The notes beneath the pieces are model-generated. The model ran no database searches. It saw nothing but the letters and a program-made list of their open reading frames with translations, and had not been told where the DNA came from. A stretch of DNA of 64,000 nt from a virus, in the IMG/VR virus record IMGVR_UViG_3300044713_000194, positions 32,001 to 96,000 of that record. One strand, written 5' to 3'. The stretch's first letter is position 1. Each line of letters starts with the position of its first letter. Shown here piece after piece: positions 25,354-59,041 of the stretch. A program made the translations under genes and the position numbers.

Positions 25354-28300
25354 TTATTTTGCAGCAAGACCGGCGCTGAAGCCGGACATCCAGTTGACGA
25401 TGCCCAGCATGTCACTCTGGCGAAAGCGCTTGTCTACCATAAGGTAGGTACCGTCTGCCAAGGTCTCAACCGAGAACGTGTAGTAACGCTTCCAGGGAGA
25501 AGCATTGAGCGCAGCGGCGATCTTCTCACCGAACTCGGGATTGACCTTATCGATCGCGCGGAGTTGCGCGGAAATCTCTTTCGATGCTGCCATCTTGGCT
25601 CCTTCTTCACCATATTCTGGCGACTTGTCCGCGATCCGGCGAACATCGTCTTCCGGAAGATGGCTCGCCGTCCTCACCCAGAATTTCCCTTTAAGCGGCC
25701 CGGCGTTCAGGTCCTGTTGCTTGAACCCGAAGCTCTTCGCCAGATTGTCGTAGTACATCTTCACTTTACCGGGCTCGACGGCCTGGTCCCGCGCAGCGAT
25801 TGAATCGACCGTATGCAAGGCTACGTGCTTGATGCCATGACGCCGCGCGATCTCCAGCAACGTCGAGAGCGCGTGCGAAGCCCAGTCCTTGAAAAGATGG
25901 GTAAGCTTGTCCTTGATCTCGTCCAGCTTCTCGGCGGTATAGCCCTGGGCGATGAACGAACGCCGGACCTGGGTGAACCGGGCGGCATCGATTCCCTTCT
26001 CGCGTATCGCCTCCCGAATTTTTTCACTCTGAACCTTCTCCATGAACTCGGCGAAGGTGCGCGATTCCACGATCGCCTTTGCCTGGGTAACAGAATTCAC
26101 CAGATCGGTCTGAACCTCGTCCACAAGCAGGTAGTGCTCGTTGACGAAGTCCACGCGGAGCCAGCCTACGGTCTTGTCACCGGACGGGTGGCCCGACATC
26201 GTGCTCGACTGGCGCACCATGTCCACATACTGCTCAAGGACTGGGTCCTCAGCAAGAATGCTCTCCGCGTTTGCGCCCTGGTTGATCTGCAAGACAAGCT
26301 GCTCAACATCGCGGAAGGAATTTTCGCCTGCATGGTATCGATCGAAAGAAACCTCGTAGTCCGGCGCGGCGGTCTCGTGATAGGACTCCAGCCATTGGGC
26401 CAGGTCCTCGCGCGTGACGACGGGACGGTTGTGCCGGATCTCATTCAGGAGCGGCGTGTACTTCTGTGCGATCTGTTGGAACTGCTTCTGGAACCGAGCC
26501 CACGGCAGTGAATCCACATTGTTGTCACCATACCACTGGTAGACGCGACGGATGGCGTCGTATTCCTGGGTAAGCGGGCGGTCCGGAATATGAAGCTGGT
26601 TGGGGATTGAGGCGGTCTTATCCGCGTCCGGATGCAGATTCTCCACCACGCCGTCCGGGGACTCTTGTTTTTTCTTCCGGTAGGTCACAAGCTGAGGATA
26701 GTCGTTCTCCCATCCGGCGTACGGCTCAATACCTTTGTCGATTGCCTTGAACATCGCGGAGGCGTGGTCCCAGGTGGGGTGTTTTTTGATCAATTCCAAA
26801 GCGTGCTGGACCATCTTTGCCGCCGTTTGCTCGCCGGTAATGGAGTCGTGTTCCTCCTGAGTGATCGTCTCAAAATTCTGTTTTGGGTCCTGGCGGCCCA
26901 GGGATACCCGGCAAGCGTGGGCACCCTCCTCCAGGATCGTCGTCATCTGATCCTGGCTCTGAGGATTCATGAAGATCGTCATCTTCCCCTGGTAGCTTCC
27001 GAGGGCTCCATGAAAAATGTAATCCTTGTTATCAACAACACGACCGTTCTCCACTGCTTTGTTCAGCGCCATAATGGGAACGTTCAGTGCTTTCCGGTAG
27101 AGGTCGCGAAGCGCCTTGCCTTGTAAGAAATCGCCTAGTGTACCGATGATCTGTCCATTGCGAGCACCGCGAAGCTTTCCATAAAGGTCCATGCTCACGC
27201 TGCATGGTTGATTTTCAGAGAGGTATTGCGTCTTTGGGACCTCGTGGGGCTCCTTCTTGGCCGCCACTTTACTCGACGGCGCATACCTCCCTATAATGTC
27301 CTCGCCTTCCTCCCACAGCTTCTCGACCTTCGCGGTCTGCTCCTCGTTCTGTGGATAGGCGGAGCCGCTAAGGCCGATGGTCGGCGACTTCAAATAGAAA
27401 CGGTCGTTCGTCTTGAAGAGCTTGTAGCGGTAGCTGCCTGGGTTTTTGTGCTCGACTATTTCGGTAATGCGCTTCTCCATCTTCGGACTCAACCGGCTCG
27501 CGTGCGCCCACATGAGCTTTCCGTTCACGTACCGGTGCATCAGGACAAAGAAAGGTTTGATCACCGACTCATCGACCACATAGCTCTCGTCCGAATGCGG
27601 CGTAACGAATCCCTCGCCATATTTGGCGTTGAAGCGGGCCGCGATTGCGAGCCATGATGGGCCGTGTCCCTTGGTGAAGTCGTACTGCTGGCGAATCTTA
27701 AACAGCTTATAGCCTTTCTCCTCCAATTCCTTCCACTTATTGACGAGGTTGTCCTCGTGGTGAGCCAACTCGTGGGCGAGGACGCGGCGCACAGTATTTT
27801 CATCGCTCATGATCGATTTTTGAAGCTCGATCGTTGTATTGAGAGCCCCGTGAGGGTCCCCGTTTTGCTGTTGCCCGAACTTCCAAACATCACACCCGAG
27901 CCAACCTGCACTGGGCCGGTTGACGATTTTGACTTCCGGCGTTTCAAGCCCCGGCTGGAGTACTGCCATCAACTCGGTTAGAATAGGACGCCAGTTTACC
28001 TGCTCGGCTGCGATGTGCGCCCGCTTGGAGTATGGCTCCAGGTTCTCATCATTGAGGAGAATATAATCATCGAGTTCTGAAGCTTCGGGCGGAATTTCCC
28101 CATCAAAGTAAGCGTTCAAAACCTTTTTCAAATCGGCCCACGTCACGACGTATGCCTCGATTTCAGCCTTCTTAGCGTTCAGTGCCGCCTGAAGCCGATG
28201 GTTCCCGTCCAGGACAAGGTAATGACCATTCCGACGTTTGGCAACGAGGATCGGAGACAACTCCCGACCTTCTTCCAGGCTCTTCGATAGAGATGTGACC

Positions 28301-31300
28301 TTCCCCTTATCCGTCGAATTGAAGAAATCGAACTTCTGCGGATCGGTGAGTGGTAGAGTCTCCGTCGTTGCGATGGCGAAAATCTCACCCAACCTACGTC
28401 CGGCCTTTTTCGACGCGGCGAGCTTCGGCTCACTGGCCGGACTTTCGATCGAAGGAACGTCGAGCACGTGTACCTGTTTTGGATCGAAAATCACGATGTT
28501 GCGAGGTGTTATTGAACCCTCCGCCTTGATTCCACCAAAACCAGTTTCCTGGATTATACGGTCGAGGAACGCCCAATTAGGTTCGCCGCGCGGATCACTC
28601 CAAATCTCCGCCCTATGCGTGTCGTAAAACTCAGCCCCCTTCTTGCGTCCATAGAGCTTCTCCAGAATCGCCAGAGGTGTGTTGGGCGATTCGGCGTTGA
28701 TCGTCAGTAACCGCACATCTCCGATCGAGAGCGAAAGAATCTGATGATTCTCATGCTTCTTGAAATGCGGGTGCATCGGCTGCTCGCTGACGTAGACGCC
28801 GGGGCCGAGTTCGCCCCCCACACTCGGGCGAAACCCCTCCCTGCGAATCACATCTGCAACGCCGGTCGAGTGGTAGTAGATTTTATTTTTGGAAGCGGTG
28901 ATGCTTGCCTTCTCGGGATTGAAGTCGCCGTTGTTACCTATTGCGCTCTTGATCTGGTTGGCGCTAAAGACCGCATAGATGTTGCCCGACGCAGGTGTGC
29001 CGTCATAGCCGTTCTCGAAGATGACACCATCGTTACCCTGTTTCTTGGCGCTCTCAATCTCACGACCCTTGACATAGCGGATGTCGTATACAGTCTTATT
29101 TCTAAGATTGAAATACTCGCCGCGAAACTCATCGGGCATTTTTGCCAGATCAACAATTCGTGGGTCCTTCAGTGCCAAATACACCGGCATTAAACGTGCC
29201 CCATCGCGCCAGCCACCAAAGTAGGTTGCAACTTCAGGATTCGAAGCAAACCAGGACACCCCAGCGATATTGTCCACGGGACTATCACTCGCCCGCTCAC
29301 CCTTGTCCGGGTCAAAGGTGTCAAAGTAGGCATTAGTACCGTGATAAACGCGCAACGGACGTCTATGGTCATCGACTACCTTCGACCCGGCAAACCACGC
29401 CTTAAATGCCTGGGTCTCGGTGATGTCACCCGGCTGACCCATCCAGTCCTGGTCTTGTGTCGGCCCATCGGCAGTCTTCGCTATAGTGCCGTTCAGCGTA
29501 ATAACCTTCCTCTCCTTGCTCGGCGTAATGACGGTGACTTCACGAATTGTGAAGCTCTTCCCTTTCGTAGTGTCCAGCCCCACATATTTAGCTTCCGCGC
29601 CCGGCTTGACGTATGCGATCGTGCAATGGGGCTTGTAATCGAAGTTGGGCTCGGTGAACCAGTGACCGTTCGTCCTATCACCTTGGCGGCCCAGATAATC
29701 GTTGACCTCAAACAGTTCGGGGCATTCGACCGGTGCAATTATGACCGCAGCATTGTCGCTCGACTCGGAAGGCGGGAACGACGCAGTACTTCCGAGTTTG
29801 GCCTGCATAGGGGGTACGGTGCCGAGATATGCCTCGATAGCCGAAGTGTCCTCGAACTTGACGCCGTAACGTACGGTAACGTGGTTTTTACCGACGCGGG
29901 CTCCCATGCCAGCAAGATCCGTCACGTCGATTTGATCGCGCACTTCCTCGATAGCCTCGTTGGCGGCGCTATCTTCGGGAAGGTCTGCCTGGACAGTGCC
30001 ATAGCTGACCTTGGCGGGTGCGTTGGCTCGTTTCTGCGTTGCATCTAGGGGGATCACATACCGGTTCAGCCTCTCGTCGAAGCTCACGGGGTATCGCTGC
30101 TTAAGATGATCCCACGCTCTTTCGTCGGTCGGCTGGCGTTGATCGTCAGAAAGGAAGAACTTCGCGCCGCGCTTCTTCGCTTCCGCAATGGCCTTATCGT
30201 AAAGAATCTGGCCAAGGCCCGTACCGCGCCATTTGGAGTCCACTCCGATATAGCGCAAGCGAAAGGCCTTTTGCCCGTCATATCTCGTGCGATATACTGA
30301 ACATCCCCCGACATGCCGTATCTCGGCAGGCTCATTCCGGAGTTCTGCGACCAGGTCGAACATGGGACCGTCGTTAGTGATCCGTAATTCCAACTCAGAG
30401 ATTGGAGTCGGCGGTTGCTTAAGTTCGGCCTGCTTCGACGCGTAATGCTGGGGCCGCCGCGCCTCAACAGCCTTACAGTTGCTGAGAACGAACCACTCCG
30501 CCTGCATCCCGCTGTAGTGACTCTCACCCTGTCGAACGCGCATACGCCAGGTCACGAGGGACTCAAGCGCCACACCTTGCACCTTACCGACCGTCTTCCA
30601 GACGATTCCGTTCGGGCCATCCGCGAAACCCGCAGCAGTCTTGTAATTCGCGGACCACGATAGAAGCGGGAAGTGGCTCCCTGTCCAAACCGCCTTTCCG
30701 TCGTGATAGTAAGAGTCGGCCCCGGAGTAATATGGTTCTCCGCGATATAGACACTTGTCCTCGGGATCGGCGGCCCACGGATTTGGAGTGAGAGTTGGTA
30801 CTGTTTTGATCAACGCCACCAGCTTGTCTGTGAGCGGCGATTCGCTGAGAATGTCCGGGTGTTGAACGTAGGATGTGATAAGATTCCAGAGATCGTCGTC
30901 ATTCGCAATCTCATAGCAGACCTTGTCATACTTCGTTTTAGGAGTTCCATCGTCGTCAAATGCAGCGGCCTTTGGCCCCTTACGCCGATTCAAGTTCCAA
31001 CGATTCGGCTTATCGGAAAAATGGCTTGGAGCCAGTTCTTCACCGAGTTCAAAATCCTCGCGCGAAATGGGCGCAGTTTCATCCTCTTTAAGAGCCCGCA
31101 CCACGTTAGTCAGGAACTTGCGAAAAATCGGCGCTCCGACCGTGGGGTTGAAGAGATAGATGCGATAGTAGCTCTGAAATGCGTTGCTCTTCCGCGAGAG
31201 AATATCCCAGCCGCCTTTGCGCCGAATCCAGATGTAGACTTCGCGGTCCTCCATCCCCGACTCGCGAAAATCGTGTACGGCCTGGCGAGCAAACGCGGCG

Positions 31301-34300
31301 ATCTCCACCTCATTACCGAGATACTTCGTTACATCCCCGTATGGGGACGCTTGCTCGCTTTGGGGAGTGTGGTAGCCTTTATCGAATTTCTCTAAAGTCT
31401 TTTCGTAAGCTTGACCACTGGGGTCTTTTTTGCCCTTGTCTGTACGCCAGCGATCGAACTGGAGCGCGTGTGTGCGCTCATGCACCAGCACACCGGTCGC
31501 CTGTTTGACAAAATCGTCCCACCAGCTTGTTCCGTTCGCTGCGGCATCCCCCAGGTACGATCCCAGACCCGGGCTCAACTTCAAAAGGATCGGGTCAGTA
31601 CCCGTCCCCATTGCGTTGTATGCGCCGCCCACTCGGAACTTCAGTGTCCCCGATGCGACAACGGTCGCCGGTGTTCCTTGATAGCGCACCTCAACCGCGT
31701 AATCAAGCGCGGCGCTGATTAGCCGAGCAAACTGATCATCGCTAACCGCTCCGTGCTTAGCCTCGTCGGCAATCCAATCTCGCGCCCGCTCCAACCCCTT
31801 CTTTGCCCACTCTGCATCCGAATCGATCTTTGGGAGGGAGGCATAAACGCTGTGACGGTTCTCATCAAATTTGCCGGAATTATTCACCGACTTAATCTGA
31901 TTGGGCTCAAAGACGGCGAACACCGAAGGGTCGCTAAGATCGATACCGCTCGATGAGATGAACTTTTCACCGGCGACCCACAAGCCGTCGAATCCTTTCG
32001 ACTTTAAATTCTCGCGCCAGCGCTCAAACCAGGCAGTGTCCTTCGCGTGCAGATCGCGAATCTCATTCCAGCGGCTGCTCGTGATCTTGTATGGCCGCCG
32101 CATCCGGAGGTAAACCTCCATCTGATTCTTGCCGAACAATTCGGAGAGATTCGGGTCAGTGGTGAACCAGAAGCCAAACTTGGATGGGCCTGACTGCGAT
32201 TTCGCGCGATCGAAGGTGTCAAATTCCGCATCGGTTCCGTGGATCACCGGCAGCGGGTTGCCTTCGCTGTCCACAATCTGTGAGCCGTTGAACCAGGTGA
32301 TGAATGCTGAAGTATCTGTTACGGGTCCAGCAGACTGCGGCTTAGCCACCTCCCGCTCAGGGGGAGCCGCAGGTGCGGTGGCTGCGGTCTTAACTGCCTT
32401 GCCATTCTCAAACCACTTGATACTTTTGATGGCGCTACGGGGAATATCCGCCTCGATGCGCCGATAGCAATCTCCTTGTTTCTTATGCTCAGGATCGGGC
32501 TGGCTTTCCCCGGCCCATTCGAACGTAACAACCGCGCTCTCTCCGGGCTTGTCGAGTTCGTGCCATGAGATCGACTTACCATACTCGTAAGCGAAACCCG
32601 GCAACGTCGTGCACCACACATACTTCTTGGGGTACCTTGGATTCTTACCGTGCCCGGCTTTGATGCCTTCCTGCGCGATCTTTTCAGCAGCGGCCCAAGT
32701 GGTGCCGTGATAGTAAAGGCGTGTTGTAGACTCCGCTGGTGCCTCCACTGCGGCGGTCACCTTGTTGCTCTCCGGATCGAAGGTCCCCACATTGCCTTCA
32801 GCGTCTACGATCTGGGAGCCGGAGAACCAGGCCTTGAAGGCCGGGCTCCCGGTGACCGGTGCGCCTGGTGTTTTGACGGCGGCAATCTTGGTTTCCGCAA
32901 GCAAACGACCGTAATCCACATCCATGATCTTTTTTGCTTTTGCGACTGGAACCTCTTCGCCGCCGATCAGGTAGCGCGTATTGCCGGGGCCGAAAACCTT
33001 CTCGCGAATTTGAAGCGGGCCACTTCCTTCTAGGGCTCCCCGTAACAGGTGTACCCCACGGGCCTTCAACTCCTTCTTCGCCATTTGGTACAGCTTCAGA
33101 GCAATGCCTTGGCGTTGGTAGTTTCCCTTGACATCGACAGCCATCACCGTCGCCGAGCCTGGGTTGCGGTAGTCGATCTGGAGGAGACCTACGCGAGGGA
33201 TGCCGTCCTCATCGTCGGAATCCATATCAAACGCGGCCAGGTCGAAACCATTCGGACGGCGGGTGATACCATATTGAAGCGATTCTTTAGATTCTGTGGT
33301 TGAGGCCTCTTTCGGAATTCCCGCGTCAACGTCGCGCGTTACAACCGAGATATTCGACGGCGGAATGGTTGTCCCGACCACCAGTTCGTAGTCGGCGGTA
33401 GTCTTTAGCAACTGCGCGTCGGATGGGACACTGACCTTAAGCAGCGCCAACCTGGTTTCCTCTCCGAACTGCTCACCCAACCAGTTGTCAAGGGCAGTCT
33501 CCACTGCCTCCACATCACGGAATAGATAAATAGCGCCCAATGGCTCGCCCAGTGCACGGGACCGTGGCCCCTGCTTTGGTACCAGCCCCTCGGTCATAAT
33601 CCGCTTAAGGTTCCGCGCCGGTGTAATGTGGTACCCAATACGCGAGGCCTGACCAGGGGTAATCACGGAGGCCGTCTTCGACTCACCCACGGGGAAGCGT
33701 CCGGATTTCTTGATCTCCTTCATCATCGAGCGGATTTCACGCATCGTTCCGTACAAAGGGAACCGCTCATGATTGCCAATGAAGTCGCGGCGGAATTCTT
33801 CCGGCAGCCAGGGACCCTTGAGATCGTATTGCCCAGGGGCCATGCCGAAGTCGTGGGCCATCTCGTCGAGCGTCCGCTTGCCCTTCACATCGAAGTCACC
33901 CTGGCCGGGGACGCGGCAAAAGGCATGTGTTATTTCGTACGGTATCCCGTCATCCCACGCCTTTCCATCGGGATTCGATAGGGCGTACACCTTCGCGCCG
34001 GGGTTCAGCAGACCAAGGGCGACGGCAAAAACGCCGCATTCTTTGCTCTCGCGAATATCGTGATCGAGGGCGGAGGCCGACTTCTTTGTCTCCTCGGCAG
34101 GAACGACCGCCAAAATTTCAAGCTTCGACGGATCGAAGACACCCAGATTCACGTGTCCTTCCCCCGTTTCAAGGAAGGAGTCGTAACCGTTCGCCTTCAT
34201 CCAACGCACGAATTCGGGGCTCTGCGTCGCATCCCAATTCCGCTGCGCGAGCGCCTTCATGTATCCTTCAGGATCTTCACTGCCGTCCGGCCAAATCTCA

Positions 34301-34629
34301 TCGGCACAGATGGCGTCGTAGACTTTCTTCCCGAGGGCCGGATAGGTTTTAGGGTCGAGGTAGTACCGCTGGCTGTAATCAAGCAGGGTATCCCCATCAA
34401 AGGTGTTGCTTACGTCGGCGCGGACGGTGTAAACCCACCCGTGGAAGCCAGCATGTGCTCGTGCAAAGCCTAGATCGGGTGTGAGAAAGATCGGCTGCTC
34501 TGCGATCTCCCGGGTAACGCCCCCCTTTGACGTGGTCTTGAACTGGTCGAAGCGATGGTGCGAGCCGTGGTACCACGTCCGTGCTGCCGCATCGTTACCA
34601 GGTTTTGGAAGCAGCCGGTCCAATCGCAA
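25354..34629 (-). CDS. giant polyvalent protein: several ADP-ribosyltransferase-like modules, papain-like C-H-D, two GNAT, zincin, 2H phosphoesterase, ParB/Srx, SprT
   Basis: 3091 aa; motifs YHG/HGT, LYRG..SWS..QAE, QRQGIA, RGTGLG, HERTH, HVT..HCT, LDGNHR, HELAH, DEVQTD. Confidence 0.85.
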   Translation of the reverse strand: MRLDRLLPKPGNDAAARTWYHGSHHRFDQFKTTSKGGVTREIAEQPIFLTPDLGFARAHAGFHGWVYTVRADVSNTFDGDTLLDYSQRYYLDPKTYPALGKKVYDAICADEIWPDGSEDPEGYMKALAQRNWDATQSPEFVRWMKANGYDSFLETGEGHVNLGVFDPSKLEILAVVPAEETKKSASALDHDIRESKECGVFAVALGLLNPGAKVYALSNPDGKAWDDGIPYEITHAFCRVPGQGDFDVKGKRTLDEMAHDFGMAPGQYDLKGPWLPEEFRRDFIGNHERFPLYGTMREIRSMMKEIKKSGRFPVGESKTASVITPGQASRIGYHITPARNLKRIMTEGLVPKQGPRSRALGEPLGAIYLFRDVEAVETALDNWLGEQFGEETRLALLKVSVPSDAQLLKTTADYELVVGTTIPPSNISVVTRDVDAGIPKEASTTESKESLQYGITRRPNGFDLAAFDMDSDDEDGIPRVGLLQIDYRNPGSATVMAVDVKGNYQRQGIALKLYQMAKKELKARGVHLLRGALEGSGPLQIREKVFGPGNTRYLIGGEEVPVAKAKKIMDVDYGRLLAETKIAAVKTPGAPVTGSPAFKAWFSGSQIVDAEGNVGTFDPESNKVTAAVEAPAESTTRLYYHGTTWAAAEKIAQEGIKAGHGKNPRYPKKYVWCTTLPGFAYEYGKSISWHELDKPGESAVVTFEWAGESQPDPEHKKQGDCYRRIEADIPRSAIKSIKWFENGKAVKTAATAPAAPPEREVAKPQSAGPVTDTSAFITWFNGSQIVDSEGNPLPVIHGTDAEFDTFDRAKSQSGPSKFGFWFTTDPNLSELFGKNQMEVYLRMRRPYKITSSRWNEIRDLHAKDTAWFERWRENLKSKGFDGLWVAGEKFISSSGIDLSDPSVFAVFEPNQIKSVNNSGKFDENRHSVYASLPKIDSDAEWAKKGLERARDWIADEAKHGAVSDDQFARLISAALDYAVEVRYQGTPATVVASGTLKFRVGGAYNAMGTGTDPILLKLSPGLGSYLGDAAANGTSWWDDFVKQATGVLVHERTHALQFDRWRTDKGKKDPSGQAYEKTLEKFDKGYHTPQSEQASPYGDVTKYLGNEVEIAAFARQAVHDFRESGMEDREVYIWIRRKGGWDILSRKSNAFQSYYRIYLFNPTVGAPIFRKFLTNVVRALKEDETAPISREDFELGEELAPSHFSDKPNRWNLNRRKGPKAAAFDDDGTPKTKYDKVCYEIANDDDLWNLITSYVQHPDILSESPLTDKLVALIKTVPTLTPNPWAADPEDKCLYRGEPYYSGADSYYHDGKAVWTGSHFPLLSWSANYKTAAGFADGPNGIVWKTVGKVQGVALESLVTWRMRVRQGESHYSGMQAEWFVLSNCKAVEARRPQHYASKQAELKQPPTPISELELRITNDGPMFDLVAELRNEPAEIRHVGGCSVYRTRYDGQKAFRLRYIGVDSKWRGTGLGQILYDKAIAEAKKRGAKFFLSDDQRQPTDERAWDHLKQRYPVSFDERLNRYVIPLDATQKRANAPAKVSYGTVQADLPEDSAANEAIEEVRDQIDVTDLAGMGARVGKNHVTVRYGVKFEDTSAIEAYLGTVPPMQAKLGSTASFPPSESSDNAAVIIAPVECPELFEVNDYLGRQGDRTNGHWFTEPNFDYKPHCTIAYVKPGAEAKYVGLDTTKGKSFTIREVTVITPSKERKVITLNGTIAKTADGPTQDQDWMGQPGDITETQAFKAWFAGSKVVDDHRRPLRVYHGTNAYFDTFDPDKGERASDSPVDNIAGVSWFASNPEVATYFGGWRDGARLMPVYLALKDPRIVDLAKMPDEFRGEYFNLRNKTVYDIRYVKGREIESAKKQGNDGVIFENGYDGTPASGNIYAVFSANQIKSAIGNNGDFNPEKASITASKNKIYYHSTGVADVIRREGFRPSVGGELGPGVYVSEQPMHPHFKKHENHQILSLSIGDVRLLTINAESPNTPLAILEKLYGRKKGAEFYDTHRAEIWSDPRGEPNWAFLDRIIQETGFGGIKAEGSITPRNIVIFDPKQVHVLDVPSIESPASEPKLAASKKAGRRLGEIFAIATTETLPLTDPQKFDFFNSTDKGKVTSLSKSLEEGRELSPILVAKRRNGHYLVLDGNHRLQAALNAKKAEIEAYVVTWADLKKVLNAYFDGEIPPEASELDDYILLNDENLEPYSKRAHIAAEQVNWRPILTELMAVLQPGLETPEVKIVNRPSAGWLGCDVWKFGQQQNGDPHGALNTTIELQKSIMSDENTVRRVLAHELAHHEDNLVNKWKELEEKGYKLFKIRQQYDFTKGHGPSWLAIAARFNAKYGEGFVTPHSDESYVVDESVIKPFFVLMHRYVNGKLMWAHASRLSPKMEKRITEIVEHKNPGSYRYKLFKTNDRFYLKSPTIGLSGSAYPQNEEQTAKVEKLWEEGEDIIGRYAPSSKVAAKKEPHEVPKTQYLSENQPCSVSMDLYGKLRGARNGQIIGTLGDFLQGKALRDLYRKALNVPIMALNKAVENGRVVDNKDYIFHGALGSYQGKMTIFMNPQSQDQMTTILEEGAHACRVSLGRQDPKQNFETITQEEHDSITGEQTAAKMVQHALELIKKHPTWDHASAMFKAIDKGIEPYAGWENDYPQLVTYRKKKQESPDGVVENLHPDADKTASIPNQLHIPDRPLTQEYDAIRRVYQWYGDNNVDSLPWARFQKQFQQIAQKYTPLLNEIRHNRPVVTREDLAQWLESYHETAAPDYEVSFDRYHAGENSFRDVEQLVLQINQGANAESILAEDPVLEQYVDMVRQSSTMSGHPSGDKTVGWLRVDFVNEHYLLVDEVQTDLVNSVTQAKAIVESRTFAEFMEKVQSEKIREAIREKGIDAARFTQVRRSFIAQGYTAEKLDEIKDKLTHLFKDWASHALSTLLEIARRHGIKHVALHTVDSIAARDQAVEPGKVKMYYDNLAKSFGFKQQDLNAGPLKGKFWVRTASHLPEDDVRRIADKSPEYGEEGAKMAASKEISAQLRAIDKVNPEFGEKIAAALNASPWKRYYTFSVETLADGTYLMVDKRFRQSDMLGIVNWMSGFSAGLAAK

Positions 34630-34783: not shown

Positions 34784-35638
34784 TCATCCGAGAATCCATC
34801 TGTTTTGTCTCAATCCAGACGAGCAGGGGCGGTTAGCGGTGAGGTTGACGGCCCACTCCTGAAACTCGGATTTGTAGGACTCGGCCAGGGATTGGTACGT
34901 GGCCGATTTGTTGATGTCGAGCGAAACGCCGTTGAGGGAGTAGCCAAATTCCTCCTCGGCCCATCGGGCTGCTTCTTTGCCCAGGCAATGGCCCGCCGCG
35001 CCGACTGCCGCCGCATCGGCCCATACGTCGGGGGCGTTCTCCAGCCTGTATTCGGTCCAGTTCATCGGGTTCCAAGTATTCAACTGGCTAATGGACAGGC
35101 GGAGCATGCGAGTTATGGTTGAATCGGTCCAGATGTAGCCGACCCGTGTGTTGAATCCCGCGACGACTTTACCCGGCGTCGGCGGACGGAAGTGATAATT
35201 ACGGTCCGGGTTCTCATCGGAAAGAAGCTCGCGGACTGTCATGATGTGGCGAGCAATCTTGGGGCTGAGGCCCGGCTTAGAGGTCATCAGAACGGAGGGC
35301 GCTTCAAAACTCGTCTGCGCGGGATCTATACGAACGACTTCGAACTCTTCGTACACCTGACGCTCTTGATCGTTGGGGTACTGAACGACGTACCAGACCA
35401 GGTCGTATCTGCCGTCCCAATTTGAAGGGATCGTGAGATTGACGTAGTAGGTGCCGTTCCCGGCGCGAGCCGGTACCTGCTTGGGCGGACTGGCCAACGT
35501 GCGGACATTGGTAGCCGGGTCAACCGAAAAAATTGAGTAGGAAATGTAAGCGGGATCGACGAAGTAGCCGCGCTCATCGCGTAAATTGATGCCCAGATCG
35601 CCTGGGGCCAGGGTCTTGCCTTGGTTGATAACAATCAT
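34784..35638 (-). CDS. head completion / adaptor-like structural protein
   Basis: 284 aa; N-terminal Ig-like part and helical C-terminus; AGGAG RBS. Confidence 0.55.
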   Translation of the reverse strand: MIVINQGKTLAPGDLGINLRDERGYFVDPAYISYSIFSVDPATNVRTLASPPKQVPARAGNGTYYVNLTIPSNWDGRYDLVWYVVQYPNDQERQVYEEFEVVRIDPAQTSFEAPSVLMTSKPGLSPKIARHIMTVRELLSDENPDRNYHFRPPTPGKVVAGFNTRVGYIWTDSTITRMLRLSISQLNTWNPMNWTEYRLENAPDVWADAAAVGAAGHCLGKEAARWAEEEFGYSLNGVSLDINKSATYQSLAESYKSEFQEWAVNLTANRPCSSGLRQNRWILG

Positions 35639-35749
35639 TCCGGCTCCTAGGAGAATCGGGGGAAGCCCTGCCGGGGGCGCTAAATCCCCGGCCCGGACAT
35701 CCCCTACAAAGGGCCTGATAGCCGAAATAAAGAATTTTGCGCGATCCTC

Positions 35750-35778
35750 GCAACTTTCACGCGTAGATTACGTCCAAG
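35750..35778 (+). promoter_or_regulatory. tRNA-array promoter 1 (ECF-like GCAAC-N16-CGTCCAAG)
   Basis: Same motif and spacing before all three arrays. Confidence 0.75.
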
Positions 35779-35783
35779 GAGAT

Positions 35784-35888
35784 GTGAAACATTTATTGTC
35801 GAGTTCGCTATCCCTCTCATCGCTGTGCTATTTGCTCAGCGGTACGGGTTCGCGTGCTGGAAAGCGGGACGGTTACGATTACTACTAA
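35784..35888 (+). CDS. attenuator leader peptide 1 (MKHLLSSSLSLSSLCYLLSGTGSRAGKRDGYDYY)
   Basis: 16 consecutive Leu/Ser/Cys/Tyr codons that match the downstream tRNAs; GTG start possibly leaderless. Confidence 0.8.
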   Translation: MKHLLSSSLSLSSLCYLLSGTGSRAGKRDGYDYY

Positions 35889-35913
35889 CCACCGCTGACA
35901 AGCAGGAAACGCG

Positions 35914-35944
35914 AACCCCACCAGAAATGGTGGGGTTTTGCTTT
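35914..35944 (+). terminator. attenuator terminator 1
   Basis: AACCCCACCA-GAAA-TGGTGGGGTT-TTGCTTT; 5' arm competes with 35846-35855. Confidence 0.85.
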
Positions 35945-35946
35945 GT

Positions 35947-36032
35947 GCGGGCATGGCTGGAATTGGCAGACGCGACGGTCCCAAACACCGTTGTCCCTGG
36001 ACGTGGGGGTTCGACTCCCTCTGCCCGCACCA
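35947..36032 (+). tRNA. tRNA-Leu(CAA), C33
   Basis: Cloverleaf, loop CC-CAA-AC, variable arm, CCA. Confidence 0.85.
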
Positions 36033-36047
36033 ACATATTTAGTACGT

Positions 36048-36136
36048 GCACACGTGGGTGAGCGGCTAAAACCACCTGTCTGTAAAACAGGCGCTCCATG
36101 CGGGCTACGCAGGTTCAAATCCTGCCGGGTGCACCA
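36048..36136 (+). tRNA. tRNA-Tyr(GTA)
   Basis: CCTGT-CTGTAAA-ACAGG; CCA. Confidence 0.9.
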
Positions 36137-36154
36137 GGTTTTGTTTTGCAATGA

Positions 36155-36229
36155 GTGTCGGAACCTAATCGGCTAAGGAATGGTCTGCAAAACCATATTT
36201 GGCGGGTTCGACTCCCGCTCGACACTCCA
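36155..36229 (+). tRNA. tRNA-Cys(GCA)
   Basis: ATGGT-CTGCAAA-ACCAT; U73; CCA. Confidence 0.9.
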
Positions 36230-36249
36230 TTAGTTTTGATTTGAAATGT

Positions 36250-36334
36250 CGGGACGTGGCGGAATTGGTAGACGCGCAGGCTTGAGGTGCCTGTGTCCTT
36301 GGACGTAAGGGTTCGACTCCCTTCGTCCCGACCA
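36250..36334 (+). tRNA. tRNA-Leu(GAG)
   Basis: CAGGC-TTGAGGT-GCCTG; CCA. Confidence 0.9.
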
Positions 36335-36340
36335 TCGAGA

Positions 36341-36452
36341 TTGTGTACTGATCCTCGTGAAACGAGGCGCTGGCCGAACCCCCAGTGGACTGGACGAGAG
36401 TTGTGGCAGGCGAATTGACGCCAAGACGTTAGCGTACTCCGGTCGTACACAA
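36341..36452 (+). ncRNA. unknown multibranch RNA between tRNAs
   Basis: Closing helix TTGTGTAC/GTACACAA with internal hairpins (CCTCGT-GAA-ACGAGG). Confidence 0.45.
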
Positions 36453-36465
36453 AATTCAGTTATGT

Positions 36466-36554
36466 GCCCGCGTGGCGGAATTGGCAGACGCGCACGGTTC
36501 AGGTCCGTGAGGCCCTTCGGGGCCGTGGAGGTTCAAGTCCTCTCGTGGGCACCA
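36466..36554 (+). tRNA. tRNA-Leu(CAG)
   Basis: CACGG-TTCAGGT-CCGTG; CCA. Confidence 0.92.
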
Positions 36555-36662
36555 TGAGGTTCAAAGCGTTGAAACGTGAACTACGAGTTGTCAACTCACA
36601 AGTTGTCTAGTCATACATAGTCAAGTCGTACGTTGGTGCCTATGTATAGATAGTCGGGCCAT

Positions 36663-36751
36663 GGGGGCGTAGCAAAATGGCAAAGCGCCGGTCTTAGAAA
36701 CCGGAGGAGGTAACCCCTTCATTGCGAGTTCGACTCTCGCCGCCCCCACCA
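36663..36751 (+). tRNA. tRNA-Leu(TAG)
   Basis: CCGGT-CTTAGAA-ACCGG; CCA. Confidence 0.85.
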
Positions 36752-36903
36752 CAAGTTCATGCTGTCGCGCGATCGCAAGTGTTTCGTGCGTCCACAAGCA
36801 AATAGTGTTGTGCGATTGCAAGCTTTTCATGTTGTGCGTTGGTTAGCTTTTAGCGTCAAGGTCTGATGGTTTCGAGAAGAAATCCGACGGTACCTGACGA
36901 CGA

Positions 36904-36981
36904 GCCCGAGTGAAGGGAAATGGCAGACCTCCCCGCCTTAAGATCGGGGGCTTGTCGGTTCGAAGCCGACCTCGGGCACCA
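36904..36981 (+). tRNA. tRNA-Leu(TAA), short variable arm
   Basis: Loop CT-TAA-GA; GCCCGAG/CTCGGGC acceptor; CCA. Confidence 0.8.
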
Positions 36982-36992
36982 AAATCTGAAAC

Positions 36993-37080
36993 GGTGAGTT
37001 GGGAGAGAGGCTGATTCCAGCGGATTGCTAATCCGCCGAGCCTTCGGGCTCCGCGAGTTCGAATCTCGCACTCACCGCCA
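36993..37080 (+). tRNA. tRNA-Ser(GCT)
   Basis: GCGGA-TTGCTAA-TCCGC; long variable arm. Confidence 0.92.
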
Positions 37081-37190
37081 TATTTGCTGTGCAGCAAATA
37101 TTACCGTTTAGGAGGCCTTGAGCCCTTAATCGGTAAAATGTTGCCTATTAACGAGGAATGTGTGAAGCTCCCGCCTCGTTAATGAATCAA

Positions 37191-37285
37191 GGTGTCGTGC
37201 GTGAGAGACTGAAACGACTCGCTTGGAAAGCGAGCAGCCCGGCTGAAACCCGGGCTCCTGGGTTTGAATCCCAGCGACACCGCCA
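37191..37285 (+). tRNA. tRNA-Ser(GGA)
   Basis: CTCGC-TTGGAAA-GCGAG. Confidence 0.88.
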
Positions 37286-37343
37286 ATTTGTCCCCATACA
37301 TGGGGCGTTAATCGGCTTTAAAGGGCTATATATGGGTATTTAC

Positions 37344-37438
37344 GGTGGGGTGGCAGAGCCCGCTTTATTGCACCGGTCTCGAAAATCGGCGTGGCCGTGA
37401 TCCGGCTACCGTGGGTTGAAATCCCACCCCCACCGCCA
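37344..37438 (+). tRNA. tRNA-Ser(CGA)
   Basis: CCGGT-CTCGAAA-ATCGG. Confidence 0.85.
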
Positions 37439-37489
37439 GCTTGGTGCACGAATCGTAGCTCAGCTACGACGTATAGAATCGTTTCAAAC

Positions 37490-37577
37490 GGAGGGCTGCC
37501 GGAGTGGTTTATCGGGCCGGTCTTGAAAACCGTTGAGCCTTCGGGCTCCGTGGGTTCGAATCCCACGCCCTCCTCCA
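37490..37577 (+). tRNA. tRNA-Ser(TGA)
   Basis: CCGGT-CTTGAAA-ACCGT. Confidence 0.9.
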
Positions 37578-37579
37578 TC

Positions 37580-37867
37580 TCAGTTCGTGAGGCAGATGGC
37601 AATGACCGCCAGGATGAGCCCGACCCAACGCCTGGCGCTCATGGGCTCGTGGAAATATAGCGAGCCAAGTGTTACCCCGATGACTATTGTGCCCAAAGAC
37701 CAAAGGATTGCAACGCGCCCGAACGCCGCGTCTCGATAGAGGAACCAGGCCGGGATGGCCGACAGCGAATAAAGAGTCATTCCTAAAATGAAGCCGCGAT
37801 TCTTCAGAACGCAATCCGCCCACTGCGCAATCAACAACTGAACGATGAGATAGAAAGCGATCCACAT
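37580..37867 (-). CDS. small multi-TM membrane protein (SMR/EamA-like)
   Basis: Four hydrophobic segments; YFHEPMS..RWVGL. Confidence 0.65.
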   Translation of the reverse strand: MWIAFYLIVQLLIAQWADCVLKNRGFILGMTLYSLSAIPAWFLYRDAAFGRVAILWSLGTIVIGVTLGSLYFHEPMSARRWVGLILAVIAICLTN

Positions 37868-39754: not shown

Positions 39755-39785
39755 AAAATAGAAGGCCCCGATCTCCGGGGCCTTC
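39755..39785 (-). terminator. terminator after 39828-40658
   Basis: GAAGGCCCC stem / GGGGCCTTC followed by TATTTT on minus strand. Confidence 0.7.
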
Positions 39786-39827: not shown

Positions 39828-40658
39828 TTACAGTAACACGAGCGCGGTCCCGCACTCGGCGCAGAACTTATTTGTGGCCTTATTAACGCGTCCGCAGGTT
39901 GAACACTTCGGCTTGCGGTTCACAGTCACAGCCCGCTGGACGGGCTGCTCGCCGACGCGCCCGCGAAGCCTCAGTACGATCGTGTGGCTCTGTGACTCGG
40001 TCGGGAACCAATCGCCGTTCACGAACACCTGATCGCTCTCGCTACCGGGCACCGTGATCCCCGCTTCGTTTACGGATGCCTCATTCATATTGAACGAGAC
40101 GGGAGCCGTCACATCGACGCTAGAGGTATTGCAGAAAGAGACGGGAGCCAGGCCGCCTATAAGAGGCCCCTGTGTTCCGCCTTGAACGTTCCCGGACCAT
40201 ACGGGCTGGGAGCCGAGATGGACGCGCGGCCATTCCCAGTAGGGCCGATAGTAATCGTGGTTGTGGTAATGATGATGTTCAACGATCGACCGAGATTCTC
40301 CCTGCGGGATCTCAAAGCGGTACTCGACGCGAATCAAACCGTCCTCGGCCTTGATGCCGCGATGGTTCTCGATGCCCTCGGTCCGCTCGATGAACTTGAA
40401 ACTATTGCCGGTCTTCAAGTTTCCGTTGCGAATAAACCGCTGGAGGTCGATTTCGCCGTTGGCCGGAACAATCAATCCGGTGCCGTCCGTCGTATCGGTC
40501 CCATCTATCCAAACCTGGGCGATAGCACGGACGGAGTTGAGGTTCTTCAAAAGAACGGTGTAGGCGGAGCCGAATGGGAGAGTGACTGTGTCGTCCTGCT
40601 CACGGAGGATCTGGCCCCCGGATTTTACGCACACGACGAATCTGTTGCGATAGGTCAT
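39828..40658 (-). CDS. hypothetical protein with C-terminal Zn ribbon
   Basis: 276 aa; CSTCG...FCAECG. Confidence 0.75.
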   Translation of the reverse strand: MTYRNRFVVCVKSGGQILREQDDTVTLPFGSAYTVLLKNLNSVRAIAQVWIDGTDTTDGTGLIVPANGEIDLQRFIRNGNLKTGNSFKFIERTEGIENHRGIKAEDGLIRVEYRFEIPQGESRSIVEHHHYHNHDYYRPYWEWPRVHLGSQPVWSGNVQGGTQGPLIGGLAPVSFCNTSSVDVTAPVSFNMNEASVNEAGITVPGSESDQVFVNGDWFPTESQSHTIVLRLRGRVGEQPVQRAVTVNRKPKCSTCGRVNKATNKFCAECGTALVLL

Positions 40659-41924: not shown

Positions 41925-42715
41925 ACGGCGCATCGCCGCCCTAACCACCGGCGACATCTACGCGCGAGAGTCAGATCGCTATCACCATCGACCTGCGCCC
42001 GGGCTCCGGAACGGGTACGTCTGATTCAGGCCGGGCTCTTTGCCAATTAGAAGACCTCACCGCCGCGTGCAATCTACCTGCTGTGGGCAAGCCGCATCTG
42101 CGGTAATTGAGGGAGGGATTCGAACCCTCATTCCCCGGCATCTCAATGTTTGCCCCCTGCGGCCACCCCTCGCGCAGGGTTACAGCCGTATTTGGTCAGG
42201 AGGTCTTTAGCGCGGATCATGGGGCGCTTCAACGGACGAAGTCCTCGACCATCCCTCACGGCTCGACCGGGTATCTAATCCGGCCTACCCCTTTACGTTG
42301 CGCCTTACCGCCGTGGCCGCATCGCGCTGCTCCACGGTTCTCTTATGGGGCCGGTAGCCCGTTTCCGCTCTAATGCACCTGCGTGCGGCTGGGAGTCGAA
42401 CCCAGCCAAGCTGCCGTTGCCCAGCCTGGTTGATGACGATGCGCGGGTCGGGTCGGATTCGAACCGACGATCGGCGGTGGTGCCCACCGCTGCTTTAGTC
42501 CGCCTAAGCTACCGACCGCGCATCTTTCCGCCCGGTCCCATCGACCACGCGACTACCGTCTCTTGGCGTTTCGGACCCCACCCCCGGGGTCCAGACGGTG
42601 CCTGCTCGCTCGGAACCTTACCGGGCGGAAACCTAAATGGGGTCTTTTATCCCTTACGGGTGTCGCTCAGAGCGCCTGCCGAAGCATAAAACTCCGCCAC
42701 AACATTTTCCCCATA
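41925..42715 (-). ncRNA. large (~800 nt) structured ncRNA candidate with an embedded tRNA-like domain (GOLLD/ROOL-like size)
   Basis: No credible ORF; three T-loop hairpins; long-range helices; GGATTAGATACCC hairpin. Confidence 0.6.
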
Positions 42716-46680: not shown

Positions 46681-46757
46681 TGGAGGGCGCGGCAGGACTC
46701 GAACCCGCCTGATCCACCTACGGTTTCTCGTTTAGAAAACGAGACCGATACACGCCC
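46681..46757 (-). ncRNA. atypical D-armless tRNA-like RNA (loop TT-TCT-AA)
   Basis: Acceptor stem, T arm and CCA present; D arm absent; long 3' variable region. Confidence 0.6.
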
Positions 46758-47934: not shown

Positions 47935-48350
47935 TGATTGCTTCGACGAGCAGGGCTGGCAACCTGCATCTGCGGCTTCTGGATAGGTGGGCCGCTGACT
48001 TCCGTTAGGGGGTTGACACCGTGCCCCCATTCCGCTCCGCCGTTTCCGGAGTTAATCGATCATCGATCTTCGCGCACCCTTCAGATTATCCCCACTCTTG
48101 CAGGAACCAAGCCTGTCGGCCTGGCGGGATCGGCACCACGGTTACCCGCTGCGCTTATATGCCGAACTTTCCGATCGGGTGTGTTGCTACACCAAAGAAC
48201 TCTGACCGGCGAATCGTCGTTTGTTCCTCTTATCCGGAGGACTTCACTAAATCTGTAAATTCGCCGGGTGCGGTATCGCCTTGCGGCGTCCGCGCGGTTC
48301 ACTCTTTAAAGGAAATGGCTACTTTTAGGCCAACCTCCCCGGTCGAAATT
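47935..48350 (-). ncRNA. structured ncRNA with a 23S rRNA GTPase-centre (H43/H44)-like domain
   Basis: GGAGGTTGGCCTAAAAGTAGCCATTTCCTTTAAAGAGT...TTCTTTGGTGTAGCAACAC; no credible ORF. Confidence 0.6.
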
Positions 48351-48694: not shown

Positions 48695-48724
48695 AAAGCA
48701 AAACCCCCGGCCTTAGCCGGGGGT
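48695..48724 (-). terminator. attenuator terminator 2
   Basis: ACCCCCGGC-TAAG-GCCGGGGGT-TTTGCTTT. Confidence 0.85.
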
Positions 48725-48750
48725 CGTGAACCTACGAGTAAACCACTCGG

Positions 48751-48852
48751 TTACACGGAACCCCCCAGCACGCGATCCCATCCTTCGCGCACTACGCTCT
48801 CCATCCGCTTAACGCGGATGTTGACAGTCGTTTTTATGGTCCTGGAGTTCAT
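48751..48852 (-). CDS. attenuator leader peptide 2 (MNSRTIKTTVNIRVKRMESVVREGWDRVLGGSV)
   Basis: GGAAGGA RBS; codons cover all 13 canonical tRNAs of array 2. Confidence 0.8.
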   Translation of the reverse strand: MNSRTIKTTVNIRVKRMESVVREGWDRVLGGSV

Positions 48853-48873
48853 GTAAAGAGTATCCTTCCCTTG

Positions 48874-48902
48874 CTTGGACGTAATCCCTAGCCAAAAGTT
48901 GC
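48874..48902 (-). promoter_or_regulatory. tRNA-array promoter 2
   Basis: GCAAC-N16-CGTCCAAG. Confidence 0.75.
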
Positions 48903-48933
48903 GAAGTTTTGTAGGATTTGATTCGGAGGTAAT

Positions 48934-49801: not shown

Positions 49802-49879
49802 TGGCCCGAGGAGCGGGAGTCGAACCTGCCCACCGGATGACTGCGCAGACCCCGGCGCTACCCACATGCCAGTCCTCGG
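49802..49879 (-). ncRNA. tRNA-like RNA with enlarged anticodon loop
   Basis: CCGAGGA/TCCTCGG-G-CCA; T arm; 13-nt loop. Confidence 0.55.
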
Positions 49880-51356: not shown

Positions 51357-52562
51357 TCAGTCTTTATAGGGGTCCCGCTCTGTCGAAGACGCCATTGCCA
51401 CGCCAACCGGCGTCAGCCGGTGCAGAATCTTGACCGAGTCCTCGACTGAAGCCAGGACCTCGTCAAGGCGCTTGTAGCAATCCGGCGACTCATCGAGGCC
51501 GCCGCCGCGAAGCTCGATACCCGCGCGATCGATCCAGGCACGCATCATCTCCTGGGTAACTTTGCCTTCACGGACGACGCGGACTTCACCCGTCTCCTTG
51601 TTCTTCTTGGTAACACCGGTCGCTTCCTTGCGCCCCATCGCGCGGCCTGCACCGTGCACGGTCGAGTAGAGAGAGTACTTTGCGTTCTCGTTCTCGACAC
51701 CCTCAAGGATCACCGACTGCTCACCCATCGAGCCGCCGACAAAGCCCTTCCGGCCTGGGTAGGCCGGTGTTGCCCCCTTACGGACAACCCAATACCACTC
51801 ACCGCCATGGAATTCACGCCATGCATAATTGTGGTGGTTGTGGACTTCCTCAATAACGGGAGCGCCGAGAATCTTTGCAACGCGATCACATACCCAGTCG
51901 CGGCCCGAATAAGCGTAGGCACCGGCCAAATGCATCGCCAGGAGGTACTGGTCACCGAGATCGCTCTTCACGTCAAGCACGCATGGCTCAACCTCCATGC
52001 CGTCCTTCGCTCCGGCAGCCTTGAGGAACCAGGTTGCGATGCCGTGGCCAAGACCGCGCGAACCGAAGTGCACGCCAATCCAGACGCGATCCTGCTCGTC
52101 GGTGAACAGGTCCACGTAGTGGTTGCCGGAGCCCACCGTACCAAGCTGAACGACAGCCTTCTGATGCAGAGGCTTGCAGGCCGCCAGCTTCCACGCATCG
52201 GCATGGGCGAAGTCTTCCCACAAGACGGAGCTATCGACCTTCTCGTTGTTCTTGCGGCCTACGCCGAAGCTGATCGTCTTCCACACGTCGTCCATGATCG
52301 TCTTGATGTTGGCGCGAAGCTCCGTGCCGGTCATGTCTACGCGGACTGCCTTGTTGCCGCAGCCGATGTCGTAGCCCACGCCGGTCGGGCTGATGGCATC
52401 CTTGTACGCCACCACTCCGCCGATCGGCACACCGTAGCCCAGATGGTTGTCTGGCATCAGCGCCACCTTGTCGGCGGTCTTCGCGCACGTGCGTATCTGG
52501 TTGAGCGTCTTCTCGTCGGCTTCGCCGAATACCGGGATCTTTCCGTCAATGAGTTGCATCAT
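51357..52562 (-). CDS. rtcB: RtcB RNA ligase
   Basis: PDNHLGYGVPIG, VGYDIGCG, LGTVGSGNHY, HFGSRG, HNHHNYA, RKGAT, HGAGR, DESPDCYK. Confidence 0.95.
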   Translation of the reverse strand: MMQLIDGKIPVFGEADEKTLNQIRTCAKTADKVALMPDNHLGYGVPIGGVVAYKDAISPTGVGYDIGCGNKAVRVDMTGTELRANIKTIMDDVWKTISFGVGRKNNEKVDSSVLWEDFAHADAWKLAACKPLHQKAVVQLGTVGSGNHYVDLFTDEQDRVWIGVHFGSRGLGHGIATWFLKAAGAKDGMEVEPCVLDVKSDLGDQYLLAMHLAGAYAYSGRDWVCDRVAKILGAPVIEEVHNHHNYAWREFHGGEWYWVVRKGATPAYPGRKGFVGGSMGEQSVILEGVENENAKYSLYSTVHGAGRAMGRKEATGVTKKNKETGEVRVVREGKVTQEMMRAWIDRAGIELRGGGLDESPDCYKRLDEVLASVEDSVKILHRLTPVGVAMASSTERDPYKD

Positions 52563-56517: not shown

Positions 56518-56541
56518 ACAATTACCCCCGAAACCTTGTTG

Positions 56542-56618
56542 TGGAGCCGGTGAGGGCAATCGAAACCCTGACCTGCGGTTTACGAAACCGCCGCTCTGGC
56601 CACCTGAGCTACACCGGC
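56542..56618 (-). tRNA. tRNA-Thr(CGT)
   Basis: GCGGT-TTCGTAA-ACCGC. Confidence 0.88.
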
Positions 56619-56823
56619 CCGACTCAAACTCTGAACTTCCATCCGCACACAATCGAGGCAAGTCCTAGCCTTTGAGATCCCGTGCAGGAAAATTTCTCTA
56701 TACGTACCACCCTGAGAAAGACGTTCGTAGACGCTCAACACATCTCCGTCCAGGTTGATCTGTGTCATACAACACTCCCTTGATAGGAATACCGTTTCGC
56801 TATAGCGATTCGGAATATTAAAG

Positions 56824-59016: not shown

Positions 59017-59041
59017 CTCGAAACCTGCGATCGCTGATCGC

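Follow-up and report, generated by a model that had tools for sequence, protein, structure and literature searches.

What purpose near-complete tRNA gene sets serve in large phages, and at what point they come into use, is an open question. The question is raised anew by a 64,000-nt stretch of phage DNA (here called the window) that corresponds to bases 32001 to 96000 of the 107,636-base IMG/VR virus record IMGVR_UViG_3300044713_000194. The CheckV completeness of this record is approximately 35%, and the record is therefore a fragment of a jumbo phage; its G+C content is 56.6%. ARAGORN detected 39 tRNA genes in the window, which are arranged in three blocks, one on the plus strand (35947 to 37577) and two on the minus strand (48521 to 40816 and 58929 to 49439). 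Immediately upstream of the plus-strand block, a short open reading frame (ORF), leader ORF 1, is followed by an intrinsic terminator. Is transcription of the tRNA genes controlled by translation of this ORF? Our computational analysis indicates that the locus is probably a multivalent ribosome-mediated (leader-peptide) transcription attenuator, which would place a phage tRNA operon under feedback control of tRNA supply.

Leader ORF 1 contains an uninterrupted run of Leu, Ser, Cys, and Tyr codons

Leader ORF 1 (35784 to 35888, plus strand) comprises 34 codons and a TAA stop codon and starts with GTG. According to a preliminary description of the locus, all its codons from 4 to 19 specify Leu, Ser, Cys, or Tyr, and both the coordinates and the codon list were found exactly as claimed: 35793 to 35840 (plus strand) is a regulatory run of 16 successive codons for these four amino acids. 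The description was also correct with respect to the 11 tRNA genes downstream. In block 1 (35947 to 37577, plus strand), ARAGORN called five tRNA genes for Leu (anticodons CAA, GAG, CAG, TAG, and TAA), one for Tyr (GTA), one for Cys (GCA), and four for Ser (GCT, GGA, CGA, and TGA). The Rfam tRNA gathering score was reached by 10 of the 11. The tRNA-Leu(TAA) call (36906 to 36976) is weak, with 20.6 bits, but such a gene is also called in both relatives described below, where it shortly precedes tRNA-Ser(GCT).

Leu, Ser, Cys, and Tyr codons together account for 18% of the phage codons, and the expected number of 16-codon runs in six frames is approximately 3.5e-7. The run in leader ORF 1 is unique and the longest in the six frames of the 107.6-kb record, which contains no second run of at least 9 codons. 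Furthermore, the fraction of its codons that are read by the tRNAs of the adjacent block (own-block codon fraction) is 0.61, higher than in all 754 small ORFs of the record (maximum, 0.48). We conclude that the match between leader and tRNA block at the level of amino acids is robust and that chance is excluded.

The preliminary description had gone one step further and assigned a cognate codon to each of the 11 tRNAs. This holds as a description, in which TAT and AGT are decoded through G:U wobble, but it is weak in statistical terms: for a peptide of this sequence, the p value of covering all 11 tRNAs is 0.44 under wobble rules and 0.04 if only Watson-Crick codons are counted. At the level of isoacceptors, the match is only suggestive. 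Rare codons with a single reader are over-used, since TTA and CTA make up 6 of the 20 Leu codons in the three leader-1 ORFs (the window and the two relatives) versus 9.4% in phage genes (p = 0.008). Similarly, ATA is present in all three leader-2 ORFs.

Each of the three tRNA blocks is preceded by a leader that matches its own block

The window harbors three cassettes of this kind, each with a promoter-like motif, an ORF of 32 to 34 codons, and a clean terminator 25 to 27 nt past the stop codon. Cassette 2 (48695 to 48903, minus strand) consists of a motif at 48903 to 48874, a leader ORF at 48852 to 48751, and a terminator at 48723 to 48704. It heads block 2, which extends to 40816 on the minus strand and carries tRNA genes for Trp, Asp, Met, Lys, Glu, Arg, Val, Ile, and Gly(TCC). 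Cassette 3 (58985 to 59192, minus strand; motif 59192 to 59163, leader ORF 59140 to 59042, and terminator 59016 to 58994) heads block 3, which extends on the minus strand to 49439 and carries tRNA genes for Asn, Ala, Phe, Pro, Gln, Gly(GCC), Thr, and His. Block 3 also includes, downstream of the putative attenuator 3, the gene of the RNA ligase RtcB (51357 to 52601, minus strand; Pfam E = 7e-69).

Each leader fitted its own block best. For blocks 1, 2, and 3, the codon fractions were 0.61, 0.24, and 0.18 in leader 1; 0.12, 0.62, and 0.28 in leader 2; and 0.06, 0.19, and 0.68 in leader 3. The own-block values of leaders 1, 2, and 3 were reached by 0, 4, and 0 of the 754 small ORFs, respectively. 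In the window's phage alone, the rank-based probability that all three matches arose by chance is approximately 1e-8.

Two of the ARAGORN calls, tRNA-Cys(GCA) in block 2 (42443 to 42518, minus strand) and tRNA-Arg(GCG) in block 3 (49802 to 49879, minus strand), gave no Rfam tRNA match even at a lax threshold, and neither relative has anything that corresponds to the Cys call in its own block 2. These two calls are probably false or decayed genes, and Cys is therefore assigned to block 1 only.

The cassettes are conserved in two diverged relatives

The contig L118 was found by a homologue search with the divergent upstream gene, which encodes a 284-aa protein. It contains the same 11-tRNA array behind an orthologous 35-codon leader; its Tyr tRNA gene was missed by ARAGORN and recovered by Rfam. 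Among the relatives of the 284-aa protein, only L118 has an array nearby. When metagenomes were searched with the promoter motif, two further contigs from the same sample were retrieved, which carry the block-2 and block-3 cassettes. L118 and these two contigs are collectively referred to as phage B.

The second relative, Tunturiibacter phage Tunturi 5, was reached by a DNA search of cultured phages. It shows the same three-block partition of its tRNA genes, with a leader ORF and a terminator before each block. One of these leader ORFs is annotated as hypothetical protein gp308, and the others are unannotated. The RtcB of the third block in the window is 72.7% identical to gp296 of Tunturi 5, the top match among 50,697 phage records (the next one has approximately 50% identity), and gp296 likewise lies inside block 3 of that phage. 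Tunturi 5 is the closest cultured relative of the window's phage. Tunturi 5 is a cultured myovirus of 309 kb with a host from the Acidobacteriota and 43 listed tRNAs, and the words attenuator and leader are absent from the paper that describes it (PMC11924767). Since the host of the closest relative belongs to the Acidobacteriota, the window's phage may have an acidobacterial host too.

At the same place as in the window, the leader-1 orthologues comprise 35 codons in phage B (L118/L228) and 32 codons in Tunturi 5 (L129). Their runs are 15 codons long and are built from the same four amino acids in another order. That the order differs while the set is kept is predicted by selection on codon identity and not on the peptide. 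The own-block ranks were 1/376, 0/376, and 0/376 in Tunturi 5 and 0/241 and 0/241 in phage B; block 3 of phage B is cut by the contig end, and thus eight leaders could be evaluated for the own-block match. Taken together, in nine cassettes from three phages, an ORF of 32 to 49 codons with a start codon is located directly upstream of the genes that it would regulate, and in the eight leaders evaluated, codons for the amino acids to be sensed are enriched beyond chance. Moreover, the distance between stop codon and hairpin is 24 to 27 nt in eight of the nine cassettes.

A leader-3 profile, run against 1.84 billion proteins, yielded P0003 and P0004, two more peptides that share the leader-3 composition and are singletons from other assemblies; an IMG/VR scan for their DNA gave no match. 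A loose promoter pattern had 116 single matches in IMG/VR, and among the contexts inspected, none resembled the window's cassettes; the 366-kb contig L032 has one motif-like match, at the edge of the locus. The pattern of a T tract joined to a tRNA-Leu start matched 27 times, in no case adjoining a tRNA. Among 66 RtcB relatives, no more than one tRNA was seen within 10 kb of the closest ones (63 to 68% identity). Finally, a cassette finder detected no matching leader at the unrelated phage arrays L162, L165, L170, L172, L188, and L190; single-block arrays provide little power for this test.

Terminator and predicted antiterminator of leader 1

The intrinsic terminator of cassette 1 (35915 to 35946, plus strand) is a hairpin at 35915 to 35936 (extended, 35913 to 35938) with a free energy (ΔG) of approximately -17 kcal/mol, followed by a T tract that ends right at the first base of tRNA-Leu(CAA). 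The hairpin begins 26 nt past the leader-1 stop codon and is among the 22 terminator-like hairpins that the record contains, counting both strands, with a ΔG not above -14 kcal/mol. An intrinsic terminator is present between the leader ORF and the tRNA genes in all nine cassettes; it is weaker in leader 2 of Tunturi 5 and of phage B.

The preliminary description had also proposed a perfect 10-bp pairing that overlaps this terminator. Indeed, the core GGGTTCGCGT of the predicted antiterminator 5' strand (segment 2; 35846 to 35855, plus strand, with an extended pairing region of approximately 35840 to 35868) is perfectly complementary to the 3' strand (segment 3; 35909 to 35918, plus strand), which overlaps the terminator stem base by 4 to 6 nt. 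An intrinsic terminator requires a stem that reaches the U tract, and therefore sequestering only 4 to 6 nt at the stem base should suffice. The best duplex in leader 1 between the ORF and the region with the terminator 5' arm involves segment 2. This segment is located just after the run, at a position that a ribosome could control, and its pairing with segment 3 would be mutually exclusive with the terminator.

The extended leader-1 duplex has a ΔG of -34.5 kcal/mol (p = 0.002; codon shuffles). In a narrower test against random genomic windows, ΔG was -23.0 kcal/mol for the window (p = 0.006) and -30.2 kcal/mol for phage B (p = 0.003), and the wider Tunturi 5 duplex had a p value of 0.03 (codon shuffles). 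Furthermore, RNAalifold analysis of the three orthologous pre-terminator transcripts revealed a 17-pair helix, in which 5 pairs are changed on both sides and are thus compensatory: the paired sequences differ between the window, phage B, and Tunturi 5, and the pairing is kept. For all nine cassettes, the Fisher combined p value is 2e-4, with leader 1 as the main case of a significant antiterminator. The pairing in leaders 2 and 3 is mostly between a G run close to the end of the ORF and the C run of the terminator arm. The codon-shuffle null is unsuited to these G-rich leaders, and random genomic windows were used instead.

The dependence of folding on ribosome position was analyzed in two ways. 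Equilibrium folding of the full-length leader with a masked ribosome was uninformative, because the terminator wins nearly everywhere in most cassettes. Transcripts cut just before the terminator 3' arm were also folded. In these transcripts, upstream pairing of the terminator 5' arm was more frequent with no ribosome or with one at an early or central position in the ORF, and least frequent once the ribosome was at segment 2. This contrast was clear for leader 1 of phage B and Tunturi 5 and modest for leader 1 of the window.

An Rfam match to the Pseudomonas rnk leader at 35840 to 35947 (29.7 bits) is far under the gathering score of 55 and was disregarded.

A promoter-like motif is shared by the cassettes of the window and phage B

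The motif CGCAACTTT-N13-CGTCCAAG (35749 to 35778, plus strand) was recognized by its conservation. The 107.6-kb record has exactly three copies of it, all of which head a tRNA block, and it is also present at all three phage B cassettes. A sigma-70 scan gave no match at the cassette 1 motif, and a search of the fragment for a sigma-factor gene gave no match either. Judged by its sequence, the motif does not look like a sigma-70 promoter; with its AAC-N16-CGTC spacing, it may rather resemble promoters of the extracytoplasmic function (ECF) type. In cassette 1, a 17-nt palindrome (35737 to 35753) overlaps the motif start and could be an operator; by eye, cassettes 2 and 3 showed no comparable palindrome ahead of their motif.

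The leader-1 start codon is located 5 nt past the motif in the window and 8 nt past it in phage B; in Tunturi 5, it is located 17 nt past a -10-like CGTA. Six of the nine cassettes have Shine-Dalgarno sites, with good ones at leaders 2 and 3, and both orthologous leader-1 ORFs (phage B and Tunturi 5) have none. It is plausible that the leader-1 mRNA has little or no 5' untranslated region (UTR), i.e., that it is leaderless.

Proposed mechanism

The attenuator proposed in the preliminary description is supported by the threefold recurrence of the cassettes, by their conservation in two diverged relatives, by the 24- to 27-nt spacing, and by the antiterminator of leader 1 (p = 0.006) with its compensatory pairs. 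From the observed anatomy, statistics, and conservation, we infer that the ORF is translated, where transcription starts, in which direction the switch works, and what its physiological trigger is, as follows. Transcription would start at the phage-specific promoter-like motif, and a ribosome would translate the 34-codon leader. If Leu-, Ser-, Cys-, and Tyr-tRNAs are ample, the ribosome would cross the run and be on or past segment 2 while the polymerase makes the terminator; the hairpin would then form, and transcription would end 10 nt before tRNA-Leu. If any of those charged tRNAs is scarce, the ribosome would stall within the run and leave segment 2 free to capture the emerging segment 3. 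This pairing would sequester the terminator stem base, and the polymerase would read into the 11 tRNA genes, the products of which would relieve the stall, thus closing a negative-feedback loop. Sister cassettes 2 and 3 would act likewise on the other two tRNA blocks, one of them with the RtcB RNA ligase. Because the tRNA genes are placed behind a leader written in the same codons and behind a switchable stop, these tRNAs are probably made only when those codons are read slowly.

More tentatively, the three cassettes may together constitute a phage tRNA homeostat that covers all 20 amino acids in three channels and turns on tRNAs and RtcB only upon loss of host tRNAs. Such a loss could be caused by anticodon-nuclease defenses or by phage-induced decay, and the device could then be both a sensor and a countermeasure in a tRNA conflict.

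Several observations weigh against the attenuator. Taken alone, the antiterminator pairing is not significant in four of the nine cassettes and is marginal in two. Full-length equilibrium folds favor the terminator at nearly every ribosome position in five of the seven cassettes folded, and therefore only a kinetic switch can be at work. The distance of 30 to 46 nt between segment 2 of leader 1 and the stop codon means that a terminating ribosome leaves this segment uncovered, so that termination needs an argument from timing or steric hindrance. In addition, and unlike in trp, the antiterminator is the default in ribosome-free truncated folds, so that the untranslated state looks ON. A 1:2 protector hairpin is at best weak: the minimum-energy fold of the full-length leader shows an imperfect 1:2 pairing, and a hairpin lies within the run of every leader-1 orthologue, but the consensus fold supports only 5 weak pairs. 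At the 5' end, the promoter assignment, which was made from conservation, is a weak point. Moreover, leader ORF 1 starts with GTG, the sequence AAGGAG (35776 to 35781) is only 2 nt upstream, and an ATG-TGA pair (35782 to 35787) overlaps the GTG by one base; the initiation codon is therefore uncertain and the least secure part of the anatomy. At the isoacceptor level, the Tunturi 5 leader contains CTA and TCA, yet block 1 of this phage yielded no tRNA-Leu(TAG) or tRNA-Ser(TGA); conversely, TTA is missing from the leader even though tRNA-Leu(TAA) is part of the array. Finally, amino acid starvation would also trip the switch, and extra tRNA is of no help then.

Some of these observations would fit a fixed partial terminator that senses nothing and damps a strong promoter, with a short ORF that only loads a ribosome for Rho exclusion or RNA stability. 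Equilibrium folds that favor the terminator at any ribosome position in five of seven cassettes, and antiterminator complementarity that is not significant in several cassettes, are in line with it. We nevertheless consider it unlikely, since it leaves unexplained the own-block amino acids in each of the eight evaluable leaders of three phages, the over-use of single-reader rare codons, and the compensatory changes in the leader-1 antiterminator. The switch could also work with the inverse logic, in which a ribosome keeping pace with the polymerase suppresses termination, so that the arrays are ON with good decoding and OFF with poor decoding. Transcription-translation coupling can suppress hairpins, as is established for pyrBI, and a leader-1 ribosome at the stop codon still permits, on paper, the segment 2:3 helix. 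However, a terminating ribosome could not melt the hairpin from a stop codon that is kept 24 to 27 nt before it, and this fixed distance, which keeps the ribosome off the terminator, argues against a pyrBI-like logic. Moreover, in leader 2 (window and Tunturi 5) and leader 3 (window), segment 2 is covered once a ribosome is at the stop codon or close to it, and this favors the terminator. We therefore regard the inverse logic as quite improbable.

If the RNA were an untranslated tRNA-sensing leader (T-box-like or another riboswitch) or a processing signal only, the open frame would be incidental. The existence of tRNA-sensing leaders such as the T-box and the atypical start codon and ribosome-binding site of the window's leader 1 would suit this idea. 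It is very unlikely in view of the open frame, start codon, and fixed stop position that are kept in nine of nine cassettes despite their divergence, the Shine-Dalgarno sites in six of them, and a composition conserved at the amino acid and not at the nucleotide level. In addition, Rfam T-box and riboswitch families gave no match; for the T-box covariance model, there was none at the gathering score or at an E value of 1 or lower in 35600 to 37700. As for coincidence, an ordinary gene for a small hydrophobic peptide with its own terminator could be unrelated to the tRNAs, and the Leu- and Ser-rich stretch does look like a signal peptide. However, leader 2 is charged and leader 3 is polar, each of these sister leaders matches its own block, the peptide order is scrambled between relatives, and with a rank-based chance of approximately 1e-8 for three matches, we give this explanation hardly any weight.

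Comparison with known systems

Multivalent attenuators are known from enterobacteria, where the ilvGMEDA leader responds to Ile, Leu, and Val and the thr leader to Thr and Ile; other leader-peptide attenuators are trpL, hisL, leuL, pheL, and pheM of pheST. In mechanism, the multivalent ilv and thr attenuators are closest to the phage leader-peptide attenuator proposed here. In common with them, the phage cassettes have a short ORF rich in the codons to be sensed, several amino acids per leader, an intrinsic terminator, and an upstream strand that pairs with the terminator 5' arm and that would be freed by a ribosome stalled in the run. The phage device differs in what it would control: not biosynthetic or synthetase genes as in ilv, thr, trp, and pheST but tRNA genes, plus RtcB in a sister block. 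It is phage encoded, its product would relieve the stall directly, and its leaders would sense up to approximately 10 amino acid types each, with three leaders partitioning all 20. Unlike trp, it has no convincing 1:2 protector and appears to be ON by default if untranslated; furthermore, leader-1 termination would rely on timing or on a ribosome between the strands, and this leader may have little or no 5' UTR.

A T-box, which precedes translation-related genes, binds one specific uncharged tRNA via a specifier codon and switches between terminator and antiterminator without a ribosome. The phage device would likewise read tRNA charging and switch between terminator and antiterminator, but through an ORF of many codons. 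Full-text literature searches found no published account of leader-peptide attenuation of tRNA genes. What is new here, and sets the phage cassettes apart from the classical attenuators, is that the genes under the proposed control are tRNA genes. If the leader-peptide gate exists, attenuation as known from trp and ilv reaches the tRNA genes themselves, and the phage gauges the decoding capacity of the cell for each class of codons and provides tRNAs and RNA repair when they are needed.

Among published systems, the closest analogue in function is the trn array of Anabaena sp. PCC 7120, a supernumerary, horizontally spread, and normally silent L-array of tRNA genes that is induced by impaired translation and with which rtcB is co-regulated (PMC8421152, PMC10272220). 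There, control is exerted at the promoter by direct repeats and the repressor TrcR (PMC8421152, PMC10272220), whereas the phage device would act through a leader ORF and a terminator; the words attenuator, leader peptide, and terminator are absent from both papers (PMC8421152, PMC10272220). The cassettes of Tunturi 5 make a link to host tRNA-cleaving defenses directly testable, since this cultured jumbo phage shares all three and infects a known host, Tunturiibacter psychrotolerans X4BP1. The presence of the complete set in a phage-host pair that is in culture adds to the value of the system.

Other features of the locus

A 3,091-aa ORF (25354 to 34629, minus strand) has an end approximately 1 kb upstream of cassette 1. 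Further downstream in the window, a terminator at 39763 to 39783 (minus strand; ΔG = -16.4 kcal/mol) is located directly after a zinc-ribbon ORF (39828 to 40658) and probably marks the end of the block-2 operon. Within block 2, between tRNA-Asp and the Met tRNAs, 48261 to 48343 (minus strand) weakly matches positions 1177 to 1238 (the GTPase-associated center) of the large-subunit rRNA model RF02540, with 23.6 bits and an E value of approximately 1e-3, below the gathering score. A gap in the same block contains a tRNA-Sec-like Rfam match (46685 to 46757, minus strand; 25.9 bits, sub-gathering), which may be a divergent tRNA missed by ARAGORN.

Two HNH homing-endonuclease genes are interspersed among the block-3 tRNA genes (57068 to 57826 and 56005 to 56661, both minus strand; PHROGs E = 8e-40 and 2e-32, respectively), and the ORF at 56005 to 56661 overlaps a tRNA-Thr(CGT) call. 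Upstream of cassette 3, genes encoding a protein with a GmrSD N-terminal domain (60464 to 61282, minus strand; E = 1.5e-14) and a NUDIX-GNAT-YunG fusion (62328 to 63962, minus strand) were detected. GmrSD-like and NUDIX genes are found near the Tunturi 5 arrays as well.

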